DNA of 59,812 nucleotides from Candidatus Staskawiczbacteria bacterium. Lineage in GTDB: Bacteria > Patescibacteriota > Minisyncoccia > Minisyncoccales > Staskawiczbacteraceae. The stretch lies in the NCBI GenBank assembly GCA_041659225.1, contig JBAZYR010000007.1:1-59812 (forward strand), given 5' to 3'. The position numbers and the translations under genes are program-made. Numbering within the stretch: the stretch's first letter is position 1; each line of letters opens with the position of its first letter. Below the pieces are notes generated by a model. The model searched no databases and was not told the DNA's origin. It saw nothing but the letters and a program-made list of their open reading frames with translations. Below, piece after piece: positions 11,289-54,803 of this stretch.

Positions 11289-13154
11289 TTATTCTAAAAT
11301 TGCTTTAATTCTTCTAACGCCCGCGCTAGAAGACTCTTCTTTTTGGATTTTAAAATGGCCCAGTATTCCTGTCGTCTCAACGTGCGGGCCTCCGCATATT
11401 TCCCTACTTGTAGTTTCATTATAATCGCCGATAGTATAAACCTTAACCTTGTCCCCGTATTTTGATTCAAAAACTCCCATGGCGCCGGATTCGTGGGCTT
11501 GGTTCAAATCCATTTCTTCACAATTTACAGGAAGATTCGCCTCTATCGCCTTGTTAACGAAATCCTCAACAAGCTTAATTTGCTCGGGTGTCATTTTCTC
11601 TTTGTGGAAAAAATCAAACCTTAAACGTTCAGCATTTATGTTGCTTCCTTTTTGCGTAACATGGTCGCCCAAAACTTTTCTTAAGCCGGCGAGCATTAAA
11701 TGCGCAGCCGTATGTAGCTTTGTTGTTTCTAAACTCGCATCTGCTAAACCGCCCTTAAATGCGCCCGCCGAAACAGTTCGAGATAATTCTTTGTGCTTCA
11801 CAAATTCCTTCTGGAATTCCTCCATATCCACCTCCAATCCTTTCTCTTTTGCTAGTTCTTCGGTCATCTCAATCGGGAACCCGCATGTTTGGTAAAGATC
11901 AAAGGCATCTTTACCGGAAATCGTATTTTTCCGCCATATGATCTCACACTCCTTTAATCCCTTTTCTAGGGCCAAAACAAATTTTTCTTCTTCAGCATCT
12001 AAGCAAGCGGCGATAAAGCTGAGGTTCTTTTCTATCTCGGGGTAAACCAAAGCATAGTCCTTTGCTATTATCTTGGCTATTTCTTTTGTCCACGAGGCTT
12101 TGCAAATCCCCAATAGCTTTCCAAATCTTATTGCCCGTCGGATTAATCTTCTTGCAATGTATCCCTGACCTACATTGCTCGGGCTGATGCCGCTATCGTC
12201 CCCGATTATAAAGGTAACGGCCTTTAAATGGTCGGCTACGATTTCAAAAGCTTTTATATTGTCTTTATACCTTTTTCCGGACAGCTCCTCTATCTTAGAT
12301 ATGACGTTGACGAATAAATCTGTCTGAAAAATATTATCCAATCCTTCAGTCACCATAGTCATTCTCTCTAACCCTCCCCCAAAATCTACATTGAATTGTT
12401 TTAGTTTCTCAAATCCTTTTTCTGTTTTTTTATACTCCATAAAAACGCTGTTCCCTATTTCAATAAATCTTCCGCAGTCGCAGTTAACATGGCACGGCTG
12501 GTCAGCGAATACTGAGTTTTCATGTTTCTTTAAGTCAGCTCCCAGGTCATAGAATATTTCGCTGTCCGGACCCCCTATTTCCCCCACTGGCATTTTTTCT
12601 GGAGAGCCAGATCTTGACCACCAATTTTTGCTTCCCGGGTAGTAAAAAATCCTGGCATCCCCCATGCCTTTTTCTTCGGCGAAATCCAGATCTTTATTAT
12701 CAAGGTCGCGCTCTTTTAATATCGCCTTCCAAATATTTACGGAATCTTCGTCCTTCTTCACCCCTATTTTTTCGTCTCCGCGGAAAACGGTGACGTATAG
12801 GCGACTGGGGTCGATCTTTAATTCGTCGACTAGGAAAGAAAATATCCAAGGTAATTGTTCTTTTTTGAAATAGTCCCCTAAGGACCAGTTACCAAGCATC
12901 TCAAAAAAAGTAGTATGACGTCCGTCGCCTACTTCCTCGATATCTTCTGCCCGAAAAGACTTCTGCGAATCAGTTAAACGAGTTCCCAAAGGATGTTTTT
13001 CTCCGAGTAAATAAAGAACAAGAGGCTGCATACCTGAGCCGATGAATAAAGTCGAAGAATCATTGACTGGGATTATTGAAGAACTGGGAATTATAGCGTG
13101 GTCTTTGGACTTAAAAAAGTCTAAAAATTTCTGCCTTACGTTAAAGGAATTCAT
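11289..13154 (-). CDS. alaS: Alanine--tRNA ligase, short form (621 aa; catalytic, tRNA-binding and editing domains; no C-Ala domain)
   Basis: FLDFFKSKDHAIIPSSSIIPVNDSSTLFIGSGMQP; editing motifs HTAAHLMLAGL and CGGPHV. Start moved to ATG 13154 (MNSFNVRQKF), because the track start at 13253 runs through a terminator hairpin. Confidence 0.9.
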   Translation of the reverse strand: MNSFNVRQKFLDFFKSKDHAIIPSSSIIPVNDSSTLFIGSGMQPLVLYLLGEKHPLGTRLTDSQKSFRAEDIEEVGDGRHTTFFEMLGNWSLGDYFKKEQLPWIFSFLVDELKIDPSRLYVTVFRGDEKIGVKKDEDSVNIWKAILKERDLDNKDLDFAEEKGMGDARIFYYPGSKNWWSRSGSPEKMPVGEIGGPDSEIFYDLGADLKKHENSVFADQPCHVNCDCGRFIEIGNSVFMEYKKTEKGFEKLKQFNVDFGGGLERMTMVTEGLDNIFQTDLFVNVISKIEELSGKRYKDNIKAFEIVADHLKAVTFIIGDDSGISPSNVGQGYIARRLIRRAIRFGKLLGICKASWTKEIAKIIAKDYALVYPEIEKNLSFIAACLDAEEEKFVLALEKGLKECEIIWRKNTISGKDAFDLYQTCGFPIEMTEELAKEKGLEVDMEEFQKEFVKHKELSRTVSAGAFKGGLADASLETTKLHTAAHLMLAGLRKVLGDHVTQKGSNINAERLRFDFFHKEKMTPEQIKLVEDFVNKAIEANLPVNCEEMDLNQAHESGAMGVFESKYGDKVKVYTIGDYNETTSREICGGPHVETTGILGHFKIQKEESSSAGVRRIKAILE

Positions 13155-13200
13155 TAGGTAATTGTAGCTTAATAAAAAAGGAAATTCAAATTTAATGTAT

Positions 13201-13234
13201 AAAAAGAGGCCTCCGGAGGGTTGCCCCGGAGGCC
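13201..13234 (-). terminator. Strong intrinsic terminator ending structured RNA element A, about 45 nt upstream of the alaS ATG
   Basis: Minus strand: GGCCUCCGG-GGCAACCCU-CCGGAGGCC (9 GC-rich bp) followed by UCUUUUUAU. Confidence 0.8.
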
Positions 13235-13766
13235 CTTGGCATGCGATTCGCACGAACTTCCTGTCAGGAAGACACAGTGCGGCGCCGAAAAAGGGCTCGC
13301 ATACCTATACTAGGGCCAGAGATGATCTCTGGCGAGAAAATGTGCTAAAAAGATGGACAGTTGACAGACGGCTTGAGCTGTCGGTTTGAGTGTCGGCGGC
13401 GGGCGTTTTGCCCTGAATCGGACTATGTCGCCGATAGGGTAGCAACGTTGCCCCCAGAATCTCGGAACCACAGCGTGGGACCGGCCCGCGTTCACGCGAA
13501 AGCGCTCCCCGGGCATCGTTGGGCCGTTGGTAACCGTTTTGTGCAACTCTAGAATTGCACAATCATTCGCCTCAGTGACAAACTGGTGGCTCTCCAAGAG
13601 AGTCAGTCTGAAACTACTCAGCTTACATCGCTTGGCACACGATGCATGCTTTCGGTCCGCATAAATAGCGGGTTAGGCGAATACTGTCAACTGTCCAGGA
13701 GATTACTTATCACCAAATATGATAAACAATCTACTGGACAGCTGATATTCTTAAATGAACAACCAC
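13201..13766 (-). ncRNA. Unclassified GC-rich structured RNA or leader (element A) between the ykuK-like gene and alaS
   Basis: GC-rich block in an AT-rich genome, with overlapping ORFs in several frames. Perfect 13-bp closing helix 13696-13684 / 13367-13355. Nested helices 13682-13675 / 13572-13565, CAGACUG/CAGUUUG (G-U valid only on the minus strand), GUGCAA/UUGCAC and CGCG-UGAA-CGCG. Own promoter and terminator. Confidence 0.6.
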
Positions 13767-13772
13767 TCTGGT

Positions 13773-13800
13773 ATATTAGCAAATCAATACTGCTTGTCAA
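13773..13800 (-). promoter_or_regulatory. Sigma70-like promoter for element A / alaS
   Basis: Minus strand: TTGACA (13800-13795), 16-nt spacer, TAATAT (13778-13773). Begins 4 nt after the ykuK-like stop codon. Confidence 0.55.
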
Positions 13801-13803
13801 TGC

Positions 13804-14322
13804 CTAAGAATACTTGTCAGCTATTGAAGAAGCGGCAAAGGATTCTGGTTTAATCTTTGCTTCGAATCCATTACTTTTGATTAAACCGACAATCTCCTTT
13901 ACCATATCCCGAGTCTTACCCACTTCCCCGACATCAGCATGTATATACCGAAACTGGTAGTTAAGGAGATTTTCGTGGTTAATAGCTTCCTTCAAGATCG
14001 CTTCCTTTAGGAATAGTGCTAAGTCGCAGGATAATAAAACCTCTTCTAAAATCCTCTGGTGCCAATGCGAGAACTTCTTGCTTATATTATCCGGGTAGGT
14101 GATCTTTTTGATAAAGAATCTTCCACCTCCGCCAACGCGCCAGACAACTATTACAACCGGGAAAAAAACTTTATCCCCTGAAGATGAATCGCAACCTACG
14201 ATAATATCATAAAAATTCTGGGGTTTTTCCTGGATGTATGCAAAGATTTCTTTGATTACATTATCAAAAGTTAAATTCCCTTTGCTGGGGTTATAGAAGT
14301 AACCTTCTTCAAATCGATGCAT
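13804..14322 (-). CDS. YkuK/DUF458 family RNase H-fold protein
   Basis: FYNPSKGNLTFDNVIKEIFAYIQEKPQNFYDIIVGCDSS matches my recollection of the YkuK N-terminal signature. Confidence 0.6.
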   Translation of the reverse strand: MHRFEEGYFYNPSKGNLTFDNVIKEIFAYIQEKPQNFYDIIVGCDSSSGDKVFFPVVIVVWRVGGGGRFFIKKITYPDNISKKFSHWHQRILEEVLLSCDLALFLKEAILKEAINHENLLNYQFRYIHADVGEVGKTRDMVKEIVGLIKSNGFEAKIKPESFAASSIADKYS

Positions 14323-32350: not shown

Positions 32351-32421
32351 CGGGGCATAGTGCAACGGTAGCACGAGTCCATGGGGTGGATTTAGTTCGA
32401 GTTCGAATCTCGATGCCCCGA
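32351..32421 (+). tRNA. tRNA-Pro (anticodon GGG); CCA not encoded
   Basis: Manual cloverleaf: acceptor CGGGGCA/TGCCCCG, D arm GTGC-AACGGTA-GCAC, anticodon arm AGTCC-ATGGGGT-GGATT, T arm TCGAG-TTCGAAT-CTCGA, discriminator A. Confidence 0.85.
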
Positions 32422-32461
32422 CATAGAATGAGTTCTTTCACAAACAAAGAAGGGAGACCTT

Positions 32462-32704
32462 ATGTCTTCATCCAGCTCAATAGAAACTCTTACCGAAATT
32501 GAAGTTGACAACAATACCGGCATACGGGACGTTGTAGATTTTCTGACCGCACTGTCGCCCAGTCAAGGCCACGGAATCATAGTCGTAATTCAGAGAGTAA
32601 TTCCAAGGACAGTACTGCTGGTCGAAGGCGGATTAAGCATCAAAAACGGCTCGAGAGAGCAAATTCCAGACAAACCAACCGCCGGTGATACTGGCGACGA
32701 TTAA
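32462..32704 (+). CDS. Hypothetical acidic 80-aa protein
   Basis: ATG preceded by GAAGGGAGACCTT (Shine-Dalgarno GGGAG). GC-richer than its surroundings. No family recognised. Confidence 0.45.
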   Translation: MSSSSSIETLTEIEVDNNTGIRDVVDFLTALSPSQGHGIIVVIQRVIPRTVLLVEGGLSIKNGSREQIPDKPTAGDTGDD

Positions 32705-32808
32705 CATAGGCTTCCCTCCGGATAGGTAGGCGTGATCAGGAACGCAAACCTTTCGCGACCTACCTATCTATTTATATAGAAACGGCTCGTTTACGAGCCG
32801 ACGAACCC

Positions 32809-32914
32809 GGAGAGGGGGCATGCGCACATCCAGGCCACATGCCCTGGATGAAAATCTTTGTGGTAGAACCAACCCGAACCGAACCACGAGTTTTATTGCC
32901 CCCTCCCCTTTTTT
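32809..32914 (+). ncRNA. Candidate Y-shaped small RNA or elaborate terminator
   Basis: GGAGAGGGGGCA (32809-32820) pairs with UGCCCCCUCCCC (32897-32908) with one A-C mismatch. It encloses hairpins CAUCCAGG-CCACAUGC-CCUGGAUG and GUGGU...ACCAC, and is followed by U6. Confidence 0.3.
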
Positions 32915-32925
32915 ACATTCAAAAA

Positions 32926-32950
32926 CCAGCGAAGGATTCCCCCTCGCTGG
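32926..32950. terminator. Bidirectional terminator between convergent units
   Basis: CCAGCGA ... TCGCTGG stem, flanked by A5 upstream and TTTTGTTTTTT downstream; 10 nt from the stop of the 32960..34651 gene. Confidence 0.65.
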
Positions 32951-32959
32951 TTTTGTTTT

Positions 32960-48451: not shown

Positions 48452-48509
48452 ATCTTTTTCTATTATACCCCTATCAGAGTAAAAACTATTAGGGTATATC
48501 TAATACCCC

Positions 48510-48539
48510 TTGACAAAGTATTATGATATATGGTATAAT
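48510..48539 (+). promoter_or_regulatory. Near-consensus sigma70 promoter with extended -10
   Basis: TTGACA (48510-48515), 18-nt spacer ending TGG, TATAAT (48534-48539). Confidence 0.6.
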
Positions 48540-48606
48540 GTATATGTGTTCGTTACCAACCGTTTTCCAGGGATGGCTATACAGCCAATTACGAAAGGGA
48601 AATGCC

Positions 48607-48792
48607 ATGCAATTCAAAGTGGTTTTCAGCGCGTCGGATAGAGGTAGAGCCCAGGTAACCGATGAAGAGCGTCGGGCGAGCTTCGAGAAAGAGCTCAACA
48701 CGCTCGGAGCCGAGGGGTGGGTGGTCGCTAAGGTTGAGTTCCCGAACGGACCCAACAGCAACTCCTACCACGCCCTCATGCAGAAGAGCTAA
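48607..48792 (+). CDS. DUF4177-like small protein (61 aa)
   Basis: MQFKVVFSA...FEKELNTLGAEGWVVAKVEF. SD AAAGGGAAA upstream. The track start at 48523 lies inside the promoter. Confidence 0.55.
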   Translation: MQFKVVFSASDRGRAQVTDEERRASFEKELNTLGAEGWVVAKVEFPNGPNSNSYHALMQKS

Positions 48793-48832
48793 TCCTGGCT
48801 CCCCGATCACCTCCCATTTTAGGAGAGTTACA

Positions 48833-48994
48833 ATGACGGACAAGAAAAAGAGAGCCAAATGGCTCAAGAAAGCAAAGAAGGCGATGCTCAAGGGAACGAT
48901 TTCCCTTCAGCAACTCAAGGCGAGCCAAACTGGTACCTGTGTGACCACGGTCAGACAGCTCCAGGAGGAGCTCCCAAAGGGGCTGATCGACTAG
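48833..48994 (+). CDS. Hypothetical basic 53-aa protein (below the ORF-track cutoff as an independent ORF)
   Basis: AGGAGAG SD 6 nt upstream of the ATG; MTDKKKRAKWLKKAKKAMLKGTISLQQLK... Confidence 0.45.
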   Translation: MTDKKKRAKWLKKAKKAMLKGTISLQQLKASQTGTCVTTVRQLQEELPKGLID

Positions 48995-48996
48995 GT

Positions 48997-49084
48997 TCTC
49001 GCTTCGGCGAGAGCAACAAAGTCCTTGTACCAGCGCGTACGAGGACTTTTCATTTAAGCAAACACCCCTTTTCAAGGGGCGTTT
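48997..49084. terminator. Three consecutive hairpins between convergent small genes
   Basis: UCUCGC-UUCG-GCGAGA (48997-49012). AAAGUCCU...AGGACUUUU (49018-49050). CCCCUU-UUC-AAGGGG with flanking U/A runs (49062-49084). Confidence 0.5.
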
Positions 49085-49101
49085 GTTAAGAGTTCTTTTT
49101 C

Positions 49102-49263
49102 CTATTTCTTGTTTCCTAGGATTCGAAACATTTTAGTTCCGCAAACCGGGCAAGTGCCAGACATGGCGTTTCTTTTTTTGCCTCCCTTTGCGTTGAAACT
49201 AACTTCCTTCGGGTCTTTCATCTCTCTTTTGGCCTTGCATTTTACACAATAAGCTTCTGTCAT
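49102..49263 (-). CDS. DUF5679-type zinc-ribbon protein (53 aa; not in the ORF track)
   Basis: Manual translation: MTEAYCVKCKAKREMKDPKEVSFNAKGGKKRNAMSGTCPVCGTKMFRILGNKK. Confidence 0.7.
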   Translation of the reverse strand: MTEAYCVKCKAKREMKDPKEVSFNAKGGKKRNAMSGTCPVCGTKMFRILGNKK

Positions 49264-49416
49264 TGTTTTTCTTCGCCACCGCTGGTTGAGGTCCGTTGTT
49301 TACCAACGGTTGAACTCAGCTAAATTTGCCAGAGGGCAATATTTAACTGGAGTAAAGGCGATTTGTTTATTAAACTCGACCTTGTTTTAAATTAAAGTGT
49401 TTTTTCCTCTGAGCCT

Positions 49417-49445
49417 ATTCTATACCTATATATGAGGGCGGTCAA
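49417..49445 (-). promoter_or_regulatory. Candidate promoter driving a ~150-nt leader and the DUF5679 gene
   Basis: Minus strand: TTGACC (49445-49440), 17-nt spacer, TAGAAT (49422-49417). Confidence 0.45.
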
Positions 49446-49458
49446 CCTAAAATGCAGA

Positions 49459-53950: not shown

Positions 53951-54376
53951 TTATATTAAAAAAGCTAACACTAATCCTGAAACCGGCCAAAGACAATAAA
54001 AAATCGTTGATATCATGTGTTGCTTGGTGGATTTGCGGATAATAAAATATGGCAGAAAGGTAAGAAAACCCCAAAGCTGAATCAGAACTATTGATCCTGG
54101 GATAAATAAAAGAGGGCTGGATAGAAAGGGGTTTTTCCACAAAAGTTCAAAGCCGTACATGATTATTAACATTGCGATCAAAACCCTTCGATAGTTCCAA
54201 TTTTTTACAAAAAGCAAAAACCAAAATATGAGAATGATAAAAAGATACTGCAGCAAAATCCAGGGCATGTATGACACCCATACTGACAAGTTTGTTCTCC
54301 AAGTCGTGATGTATTCGATAATTATCCAAAACACGAACGAAAGTATAATATAGGCCCTTGCTTTGCTTTTATCCAT
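53951..54376 (-). CDS. Hypothetical 4-5 TM membrane protein
   Basis: Hydrophobic ORF abutting mnmA. The track start at 54412 is a TTG inside the terminator U-tract, so I prefer ATG 54376 (MDKSKARAY...). Confidence 0.55.
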   Translation of the reverse strand: MDKSKARAYIILSFVFWIIIEYITTWRTNLSVWVSYMPWILLQYLFIILIFWFLLFVKNWNYRRVLIAMLIIMYGFELLWKNPFLSSPLLFIPGSIVLIQLWGFLTFLPYFIIRKSTKQHMISTIFYCLWPVSGLVLAFLI

Positions 54377-54413
54377 ATTTTTAACTCTGCCATAATAAAA
54401 CTCATTTTTCAAC

Positions 54414-54437
54414 GAAAAAGGCCACGAGTGTGTGACC
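54414..54437 (-). terminator. Intrinsic terminator ending structured RNA element B
   Basis: Minus strand: GGUCAC-ACACUC-GUGGCC (contains a G-U pair that would be a C-A mismatch on the plus strand), followed by UUUUUCGUU. Confidence 0.6.
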
Positions 54438-54762
54438 TATGCGGAATGAAGGAATAAATTGGAAAAGAGCAAACGCTGCTGGGCAGTCGACAGGGTTGGT
54501 GTAGGGTATGCGCCCAAGTAAGAGCATCTCATGCACACATTGGGTCCGGGATCCACCCTAGCTCTCCTTGGGAATAATCCCAAAACCTTGTTTCGGGAGT
54601 CGGCTCCCGAATCATCCCTATCCTACGCACCACCTGCGCGTGGAGGTTGTGCCATGGCTAGCACCAGCTTCTCTGTGATGCTTCGGCCCTGTCAACTGCC
54701 CAGCAAATTAGTAATTAATTGAATAACAACTAATTTGCCGAGCATTTAACAGTTTTACAACC
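54414..54762 (-). ncRNA. Unclassified GC-rich structured RNA or leader (element B) between nifU and the membrane-protein/mnmA/thiI operon
   Basis: 18-bp closing helix 54704-54687 / 54495-54478 (G-U on the minus strand, C-A mismatch on the plus). Inner helices AGCAUC/GAUGCU, GGGAG-CCGA-CUCCC, UUGGGA-UUAU-UCCCAA and GCGCA-GGUGG-UGCGU. Own promoter and terminator. Confidence 0.6.
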
Positions 54763-54768
54763 AGAGTC

Positions 54769-54796
54769 ATAATAGCAAATAAAAGCTTAATGTCAA
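54769..54796 (-). promoter_or_regulatory. Sigma70-like promoter for element B
   Basis: Minus strand: TTGACA (54796-54791), 16-nt spacer, TATTAT (54774-54769). Begins 8 nt after the nifU stop codon. Confidence 0.55.
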
Positions 54797-54803
54797 GACA
54801 ACC

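Follow-up and report, generated by a model that had tools for sequence, protein, structure and literature searches.

The window analysed here, 59,812 nucleotides of contig JBAZYR010000007.1 from Candidatus Staskawiczbacteria, stems from a Patescibacteria (Parcubacteria-type) genome, and the same sequence is found on a 785-kb contig. Within this window a GC-rich block, hereafter element A, lies on the minus strand between an RNaseH-like gene and alaS, at the end of a gene string comprising ribosomal-protein genes, secY, adk, map and tpiA. All genes around it have the same orientation, and there is no terminator from the stop codon of the RNaseH-like gene (13804) to the promoter of the element. 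The region of element A was recovered from three independent samples with 100% identical sequence and in the same orientation. Our analyses suggest that element A is probably an autonomous non-coding RNA (ncRNA) gene and belongs to a family of modular, "clamped" RNAs that is specific to its clade and whose layout is similar to that of ribosomal RNA (rRNA) operons.

Transcription signals, coding status and fold of element A

Positions 13201-13600 represent the most GC-rich 400-nt bin of the window (57% compared to about 41% GC), in agreement with a sequence-only reading of this DNA, which had described a GC-rich block in an AT-rich genome and had regarded its overlapping open reading frames (ORFs) as typical of RNA rather than protein. 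By sequence analysis we show that the element is indeed non-coding and carries its own transcription signals. The TTGACA-16-TAATAT promoter proposed in that reading is present, matches the sigma-70 consensus at 10 of 12 positions and has a TG ahead of the -10 box; transcription is predicted to start at approximately 13766. The terminator, announced as a 9-bp GC stem plus U-run about 45 nt from the alaS ATG, shows the GC-rich stem-loop and U-run of an intrinsic terminator with 12 pairs, nine of them G-C, and its U-run (end at 13201) stops 46 nt short of the ATG (13154). Six overlapping ORFs of 45-95 aa are distributed over both strands of the element; the three overlapping ORFs tested gave no Pfam match, and a search of 5.8 billion proteins revealed no homologue of a 120-aa stop-to-stop frame spanning the core. 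An 11-codon leader peptide frame in the leader of A was rejected, since it lacks both an AUG and a Shine-Dalgarno sequence and is unconserved.

The earlier statement that none of the RNase P, transfer-messenger RNA (tmRNA), signal recognition particle (SRP) or T-box families is recognisable withstood dedicated searches. Scanning the whole window with Rfam at gathering thresholds returned a tRNA-Pro only, and a permissive scan of 13000-14000 (E up to 10) returned only noise, i.e. miRNA-like hairpins far below threshold, leaving no significant match that would explain element A. ARAGORN found no tmRNA, and the models for OLE, ROOL, GOLLD, group I/II introns, RNase P, SRP and 6S gave no match up to an Rfam E value of 10.

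Folding of the 581-nt minus-strand RNA yields a predicted energy of -239.2 kcal/mol compared to -178.8 ± 7 kcal/mol for dinucleotide shuffles, which served as the reference for the z-score (z = -8.4), and the plus strand reaches z = -7.05. The RNA starts with a leader of about 70 nt, which the sequence-only reading had noticed as AT-rich; this description needs correction in that the leader is not unstructured, being predicted to form a 27-bp hairpin. Downstream follows P1, a long-range helix clamping the GC-rich core, the combination of P1 and the enclosed core being referred to as a module. P1 had been noticed as a perfect 13-bp helix enclosing about 316 nt and comprises in fact 14 of 14 complementary positions with 316 nt between the arms. 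A search of the window with the 13-mer P1 arm, allowing up to two mismatches, found four occurrences with 0.61 expected. The core on its own has z = -3.8 in sense and z = -2.0 in antisense orientation. Its structure is predicted from thermodynamics: the minimum free energy fold contains every nested helix named before, i.e. AUUCGCCU/AGGCGAAU, CAGACUG/CAGUUUG, CUCUC-UUG-GAGAG, GUGCAA/UUGCAC and CGCG-UGAA-CGCG, and also the hairpins CCAGAGAU/AUCUCUGG and CUUCCUG/CAGGAAG within the roughly 120 nt of further hairpins expected after P1. Leader hairpin and P1 are mutually exclusive because the 3' arm of the hairpin overlaps the 5' arm of P1, both needing the segment CUGGACAG; the energy gap between the hairpin fold and the P1 fold amounts to 5.5 kcal/mol in A and to 2.4 and 3.2 kcal/mol in the family members B and L174_1, respectively. 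Directly 5' of the P1 3' arm, we observed a 13-nt unit repeated in tandem (2.3 copies, 13369-13397; CUCAARCCGWCWG in the RNA), which resembles the arm and might be left over from slippage or duplication during the origin of the helix.

A family with a conserved frame and unrelated cores

At 54481-54493 and 54689-54701, the 13-nt arm of P1 is found again, altered by compensatory changes, which marks a second element, B, in the same window, for which the Rfam scan returned nothing. A and B have the promoter, the 5' leader, the leader hairpin and a CUGGRCAGUUGACAG arm in common, and their cores are unalignable. The terminator of B ends a few nt before the annotated TTG start of the following 153-aa ORF, an in-frame ATG at 54376 being the likelier start.

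We compared relatives whose alanyl-tRNA synthetases (AlaRS) form a set of approximately 71-76% identity, the closest being 73-74% identical to that of the window, with about 20-60 kb sampled per genome. In total, we identified 11 P1-core modules in four distinct genomes, i.e. A and B in the window, L084a and L084b, L171_1 and L171_2, and L174_1, 2a, 2b, 3 and 4. L084 has one unit ahead of alaS and one ahead of tpiA, and L171 contains a predicted GC-rich transcript of 1.1 kb with two P1 helices. In L174, the spacer separating map from tpiA harbours one unit, which precedes a small uncalled ORF as well as tpiA, and another four modules fill 1.8 kb upstream of alaS, resulting in five modules within about 3.5 kb, a cluster adjoined by core translation genes. 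Modules 2a and 2b are joined solely by the U-rich spacer AUUAUUUGCUCUUUUUCUAAUA, and at the transitions from L174_2 to L174_3 and from L174_3 to L174_4 the terminator U-run abuts the next TTGACA. L173 (3340-3515) shows a promoter, the conserved hairpin with a branched apex and U8, P1 and core being absent; between L173 and L171, which is longer by 900 nt at this site, the AlaRS identity amounts to 88%. A perfect TTGACA starts eight units besides A, namely B, L084a, L084b, L171, L173, L174_1, L174_3 and L174_4.

The frame common to the family consists of the consensus promoter, a 20-bp leader hairpin, the P1 clamp with the inner sequence YRGYUGRYNGG and a terminator per unit, and by comparing its members we show that two of its helices covary. 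The base of the leader hairpin (GUCCAGGAAAUUGGUAAUUA / UAGUUAYCAGYUUYCUGGAC) is conserved in sequence, and a 21-nt leader stretch is identical in L171 and L174_1 although the AlaRS of the set are only about 71-76% identical. Aligning six leader hairpins over 20 bp (A, B, L171, L173, L174_1 and L084b) shows 95% of the cells paired and nine of the 20 pairs changed on both sides, U·G wobbles being conserved at two positions; none of 500 shuffles reaches the score. For P1, aligned over 12 bp in eight modules, 97.9% of the cells are paired, a value inflated by the modules having partly been recognised via complementarity, and seven of 12 pairs have changed on both sides. Again, 0/500 shuffles reach the score, and sliding the register lets pairing fall to 14-57%. 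Conservation and covariation in related genomes hence exist for leader hairpin and P1 and not for the 316-nt core of A with its nested helices, for which we found no homologue.

Transcription of the minus strand had originally been deduced from a single G·U pair, and the family corroborates it. On the sense strand, G·U exceeds A·C by 9:1 cells in P1 (eight modules) and by 15:2 in the leader hairpin; covariance models score higher in sense than in antisense (50 vs 35, 44.5 vs 36.6 for the leader hairpin model R1 on element A, and 44.2 vs 26.3 bits), and the core z is lower on the sense strand in nine of 11 modules. Selection hence operates at the level of the RNA or, at a minimum, of this strand.

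The cores comprise 93-316 nt and 49-63% GC in genomes of 34-41% GC, with a mean sense z of about -2.6. Comparing them by blastn-short, nhmmer --max, six-frame blastp and shared k-mers revealed no similarity beyond chance except for one 13-mer, CCCGGGGAGCGCU, common to A and L084b (E = 0.026). L084b and L174_1 occupy the same genomic position and share leader and terminator, and even these two cores are unalignable. Following P1 at a distance of 0-6 nt, the motif UUUGYUCUUU is present in five of the 11 modules, with U-runs in four more; it matches the first seven of 11 positions of boxA in its gamma-proteobacterial consensus GYTCTTTAANA (PMC5725501).

A generic module scan of all 170 loci revealed no further convincing module, shuffled controls giving 0-1 matches, and R1 recovered only known members from 71 sources, suggesting that the family is confined to this clade within the sequence sampled. 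A phage or plasmid origin was discarded, as blastn against phage and plasmid collections gave no match and the five IMG/VR matches of the 17-mer leader motif are all devoid of the hairpin and at chance level. Two further candidates were rejected: an inverton, i.e. an invertible promoter, as the three samples show the same orientation at 100% identity and the TTGACA within P1 is not followed by a usable -10 box, and an integron attC reading of P1, as GUUGAC/GUCAAC is incompatible with core sites of the form GTTRRRY/RYYYAAC and an integrase was not found. In relatives, the same intergenic hot spots or nearby ones (L169 1245-1874; L170 500-925; L084 17691-17980) are occupied by small GC-rich protein genes that have their own TTGACA promoters and reach 52-59% GC, the respective genomes having 38-41%. 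The gene in L169 possesses a long 5' untranslated region (UTR) including a hairpin and a 3' UTR with UUUGCUCUUCUUUAGACAC, resembling the post-P1 motif of A.

Independence from alaS and alternative explanations

By suggesting termination assays with tRNA-Ala or alanine, the sequence-only reading had implied a functional link to alaS, which the comparison of loci does not support. A module is located upstream of alaS in four genomes (the window, L084, L171 and L174); it is absent from this place in seven relatives (Table 1), and L173, as the eighth, shows the leader hairpin only. The window, L084 (9985-10003) and L086 (9957-9993), the latter without the element, have a -10 box 6-13 nt ahead of the alaS ATG, and alaS thus appears from its sequence to have its own promoter. 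Members of the family also precede tpiA (L084b, L174_1) and, in the case of B, an unknown gene that has mnmA and thiI downstream. The element-free relatives together with the -10 box of alaS therefore show element A to be a separate transcription unit, as far as sequence can tell. A conserved alaS leader was rejected, as searching 80 GTDB alaS loci with A by nhmmer gave no matches and 80 JGI metagenome alaS loci (AlaRS at most 65% identical) contained no module.

These results bear directly on the possibility that element A is a cis-regulatory leader of alaS, such as an attenuator, a riboswitch or a T-box-like RNA, in which the equilibrium of hairpin and P1, and thereby termination before alaS, would depend on a ligand or tRNA. 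Its presence ahead of alaS in four genomes, the 46 nt from the terminator to the ATG, two exclusive helices of near-equal energy and the U-rich tract after P1 would all be accounted for. However, in a T-box no separate promoter stands between leader and gene, and here TTGAAT-17-TACAAT is placed between terminator and ATG. In addition, the would-be sensor cores have no sequence or k-mers in common, and Rfam T-box and riboswitch models are silent up to an E value of 10, including RF00230, which has no match in 13000-14000, L084, L171 and L173; no GGUGGNACCGCG-like sequence exists in A. The promoter of alaS and the members ahead of unrelated genes therefore make a role as alaS leader or T-box unlikely, and we consider it quite improbable.

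Two further candidates linking the family to alaS were tried and discarded. Reading the L171/L173 leader (GAAGCUAGUA) as a T-box Stem I fails, as there is no antiterminator and Rfam is negative, and antisense pairing of the family U-rich motif UUUGUUCUUUUUU to the alaS mRNA is regarded as a low-complexity coincidence, members away from alaS carrying the motif too. The complement of UUUGUUCUUUUUU corresponds to a conserved A-rich stretch of alaS (window 12854-12866, motif on the plus strand, codons FKKEQ), which is found at the same place in many alaS loci. As to alaS itself, no Shine-Dalgarno sequence is visible and the -10 box is very near the ATG, which suggests that its mRNA is leaderless or near-leaderless in this lineage. 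The encoded AlaRS (11289-13154) comprises 621 aa with catalytic and SAD domains and is much shorter than typical bacterial AlaRS; relatives from the candidate phyla radiation (CPR) have 599-675 aa.

The most serious alternative is a mobile or recombining cassette acting on the DNA level, resembling a miniature inverted-repeat transposable element (MITE) or a hairpin-targeting insertion, in which the inverted repeats would be recombination or transposition sites, the GC-rich core foreign cargo and any RNA structure incidental. The P1 arms do constitute terminal inverted repeats as in MITEs, presence varies among relatives with 0-5 copies at the same hot spot, the termini are conserved and the interiors unrelated and GC-rich, GC-rich small protein genes occupy the same hot spots elsewhere, and L173, with a hairpin followed by U8, resembles an empty site. 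Yet no target-site duplications flank P1 or the unit, no two cores are alike in the 20-60 kb per genome, and no transposase, integrase or reverse transcriptase is encoded nearby. All modules are on the transcribed strand, with promoter and terminator on nearly every unit. The G·U bias points in the same direction, although G·T in folded single-stranded DNA could mimic it, as do the identity in sequence and orientation of the three samples and the absence of phage or plasmid matches. A mobile cassette, which would be compatible with an RNA function, is therefore unlikely in our view.

Less probable still is an element of transcriptional punctuation or RNA stability, which would end and protect the upstream ribosomal-protein/secY/adk/map/tpiA transcript with the identity of the core being immaterial. 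The missing terminator after the RNaseH-like gene, the co-oriented neighbours and several terminator-like hairpins favour this explanation, to which we give a small chance, since it leaves the element's own consensus promoter, the conserved hairpin, the inner sequence of P1 and the promoter-bearing tandem units unexplained and since a simple terminator suffices for relatives at this position. A highly diverged housekeeping or ornate RNA (RNase P, tmRNA, SRP, 6S, OLE, ROOL, GOLLD or a group I/II intron) would be in line with the size, GC-richness and multi-branched fold, which are typical of such RNAs, but the silence of Rfam and ARAGORN described above, two unrelated cores in the same frame within one genome and the lack of core conservation between relatives render it very improbable. 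Hardly any credence can be given to a small protein gene or decayed pseudogene. ORFs of 64-95 aa exist, and one gene caller annotated a 64-aa ORF on the plus strand (L082); long open frames are, however, expected by chance in GC-rich sequence, the longest sense-strand ORFs begin with TTG, and to the lack of a Pfam match and of a homologue of the 120-aa frame comes the absence of any six-frame similarity among the cores.

Table 1. Positions of the parts of elements A and B, of adjacent features and of the alaS upstream regions in relatives lacking a complete module.
Feature	Position	Strand	Description
RNaseH-like gene (PF04308)	13804-14322		neighbour of element A on the side opposite alaS
A, sigma-70-type promoter	13800..13773	minus	TTGACA 13800-13795, 16-nt spacer with TG, TAATAT 13778-13773
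A, UUGUUCAUUUAAGAA	13748..13762	minus	5' leader; possible weak boxA likeness, unconserved in other family members
A, leader hairpin	13745-13687	minus	27 bp: 12 bp, 1x1 internal loop, 14 bp; 3' arm 13698-13687 overlaps P1 5' arm
A, P1 5' arm	13684..13697	minus	UGGACAGUUGACAG; family clamp motif YRGYUGRYNGG
A, GC-rich core	13368..13683	minus	316 nt, 56% GC, multi-branched, holds the nested helices
A, P1 3' arm	13354..13367	minus	CUGUCAACUGUCCA; 14/14 complementary, 316 nt between arms
A, U-rich motif right after P1	13342..13353	minus	UCUUUUUAGCAC; weak version of family UUUGYUCUUU; putatively boxA-like and/or U-tract
A, 3' tail hairpins	13236..13341	minus	GCCAGAGAU/AUCUCUGGC at 13333-13315; CUUCCUG-ACA-GGAAG at 13271-13256
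A, terminator	13235..13207	minus	12-pair stem (9 G-C), 5-nt loop, then CUUUUU; U-run end 13201
alaS promoter-like site	13152..13189	minus	TTGAAT-17-TACAAT; -10 ends 6 nt before ATG (13154-13152); outside element A, marks its downstream boundary
Element B	54413-54803	minus	paralogue of A; between iscU and unknown 153-aa gene, then mnmA, thiI
B, promoter	54796-54769	minus	
B, leader hairpin	~54743-54698	minus	
B, P1 5' arm	54704-54687	minus	
B, core		minus	191 nt
B, P1 3' arm	54495-54478	minus	
B, UUUGCUCUUUU	54473-54463	minus	
B, terminator	54437-54415	minus	
L086/L087	alaS upstream		tpiA/RNaseH-like/alaS order kept, 113-nt spacer
L169	alaS upstream		AT-rich spacer, 258 nt
L181	alaS upstream		spacer, 94 nt
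L182	alaS upstream		spacer, 102 nt
L170	alaS upstream		141-aa gene, then 142-nt spacer
L172	alaS upstream		73-aa gene, then short spacer
L175	alaS upstream		other gene order, module absent

Two other regions of the window are recorded here as separate observations. Positions 48452-49458 constitute a 1-kb gap between called genes, containing a 53-aa ORF with a CxxC...CxxC zinc ribbon (49263-49102, minus strand), with about 140 nt upstream of its ATG to which no feature was assigned; further small ORFs are possible on the opposite strand, past a consensus plus-strand promoter at 48510-48539. Positions 32423-32959 have 47% GC, no ORF of at least 120 aa and several hairpins, and Rfam returned nothing at gathering thresholds; the flanks are a gene for a 563-aa Ig-domain protein and tRNA-Pro (32351-32422), which alone among the genes nearby is on the plus strand.

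A model for clamped modules and comparison with known systems

The data on frame and cores are compatible with a model in which a consensus sigma-70 promoter would drive an untranslated transcript whose sequence-conserved leader hairpin of at least 20 bp would fold first, whereupon P1, a helix of 12-18 bp, would close around an idiosyncratic GC-rich folded core, with the pyrimidine-rich motif, more hairpins and a strong terminator coming after P1. The long duplexes, i.e. hairpin and P1, might be processing sites for a double-stranded RNA-specific nuclease, e.g. RNase III, a cleavage we propose because of duplex length only (27 bp for the leader hairpin, 14-18 bp for P1), and this cleavage would free or stabilise the core as a structured RNA acting in trans. 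The pyrimidine motif could aid the polymerase through untranslated terminator-like sequence by recruiting Nus factors, or might instead be the U-tract of a P1 terminator; competition of hairpin and P1 for CUGGACAG may set whether transcription stops at P1/U-tract or runs to the final terminator. Processing, the boxA function, this switch and the action in trans are steps that we infer by analogy.

Several points weigh against element A being an autonomous RNA gene of this kind. The transcript ends are predicted from sequence, and the family has been seen only within a few tens of kb per genome. The 316-nt core of A has no homologue on the level of DNA or translation, its internal helices are without covariation support, and some cores are not significantly structured (L174_1, z = +0.3; L171_2, z = -0.8). 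Unalignable cores at the same position are unusual for a functional RNA and would fit neutral or selfish cargo. The pairing percentage of P1 is inflated, as mentioned above. The boxA reading is weak: the 3' half of the consensus (AANA) is unmatched, the copy of A is degenerate, and the 9-mer TTGYTCTTT is common in the genome (six found with 3.3 expected).

Going beyond the autonomous RNA gene, the frame could represent an expression cassette presenting a fast-turnover repertoire of unrelated folded GC-rich "cargo" RNAs, organised in tandem arrays at a few hot spots of a symbiont genome of roughly 0.8 Mb, which we put forward tentatively and regard as rather unlikely. If true, it would point to diversifying RNA effectors, for example decoys or binders directed against phage or host factors, or released or exchanged RNAs, and not to a housekeeping RNA. 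A diversifying repertoire of cores would represent a new mode of RNA evolution, and such a cargo-RNA cassette system would be new in kind, to which we assign a minority chance.

CPR bacteria, i.e. Patescibacteria, make up a large share of bacterial diversity, and to our knowledge almost nothing is known about their non-coding RNAs; we found no description of such elements in the literature on CPR structured RNAs. Within a 60-kb window on a 785-kb contig, we describe two structured RNA genes, 350-560 nt in size and each with a promoter of its own. A structured ncRNA gene is a known sort of object, and the combination of a conserved covarying frame, unconserved folded cores and promoter-equipped tandem units in a very small genome is new, conserved frame and unconserved cores fitting neither the usual picture of a functional RNA nor that of a selfish repeat. 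If the rRNA-operon-like layout holds true, transcription with Nus factors and boxA and maturation by RNase III would gain a new class of substrates. A genome-wide census could use leader hairpin and P1 motif as a searchable signature.

Among known systems, 23S rRNA intervening sequences and MITE-like transcribed repeats, such as the Correia, BOX and RPE elements, have similar interiors per genome and no promoter or terminator of their own. Like the family described here, the 23S intervening sequences and Correia-type repeats are sporadically distributed, have a long inverted-repeat stem that is a likely RNase III substrate and insert at hairpins, whereas in our family no core occurs twice and almost all units are complete transcription units. 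CRISPR arrays share with the family the long untranslated arrays, conserved repeats around hypervariable segments, a strong leader promoter and possible boxA-dependent read-through; Stringer et al. (eLife, 2020) are said to have described CRISPR arrays with a boxA in the leader. In contrast to CRISPR, the repeats of the family are inverted and pair with each other, and the variable segments of 93-316 nt are GC-rich and folded. With regard to CRISPR or TIGR systems, the only repeat found is the 13-nt repeat with 2.3 copies, and no cas-like genes are among the ORFs tested; with regard to retrons, inverted repeats are present and no reverse transcriptase is encoded by the 29 larger ORFs tested, which include the flanks of A and B. 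T-boxes and other leaders of aminoacyl-tRNA synthetase genes resemble element A in being upstream of a tRNA synthetase gene and in having alternative helices and a terminator; element A, however, is without T-box sequence and has neither a conserved specifier nor an antiterminator, a separate promoter appears to serve the gene, and the family extends beyond alaS. OLE, ROOL and GOLLD are large ornate bacterial RNAs of undefined function (PMC12286853). As element A, they are multi-branched, GC-enriched ncRNAs of several hundred nt standing alone among unrelated genes, but their cores are conserved and extensively covarying, whereas in the present family the frame alone is conserved and modules occur in multiple copies in tandem.

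The comparison suggesting the model outlined above is that with rRNA operons, which in their order show a strong promoter, boxB-boxA-boxC, leader-trailer helices with RNase III sites and a second boxA before the next helix (PMC10250234). The modules of the family likewise combine a consensus promoter, an untranslated GC-rich structured product, a long flanking helix and multiple modules per transcript with a pyrimidine motif of the GYUCUUU type between successive helices, and the leader-trailer helix has its counterpart in P1, which is fully paired in A (14/14 bp) and covaries over eight modules. They differ in that the module products are 93-316 nt in size, mutually different, unconserved and not rRNA, and in that the motif, which matches only 7/11 boxA positions, follows the helix instead of preceding it, except in tandem arrays. 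The presence of UUUGYUCUUU together with a leader-trailer helix of the CAGUUGAC type in the rRNA operons of this lineage would strongly support a shared use of Nus factors and RNase III by both systems.

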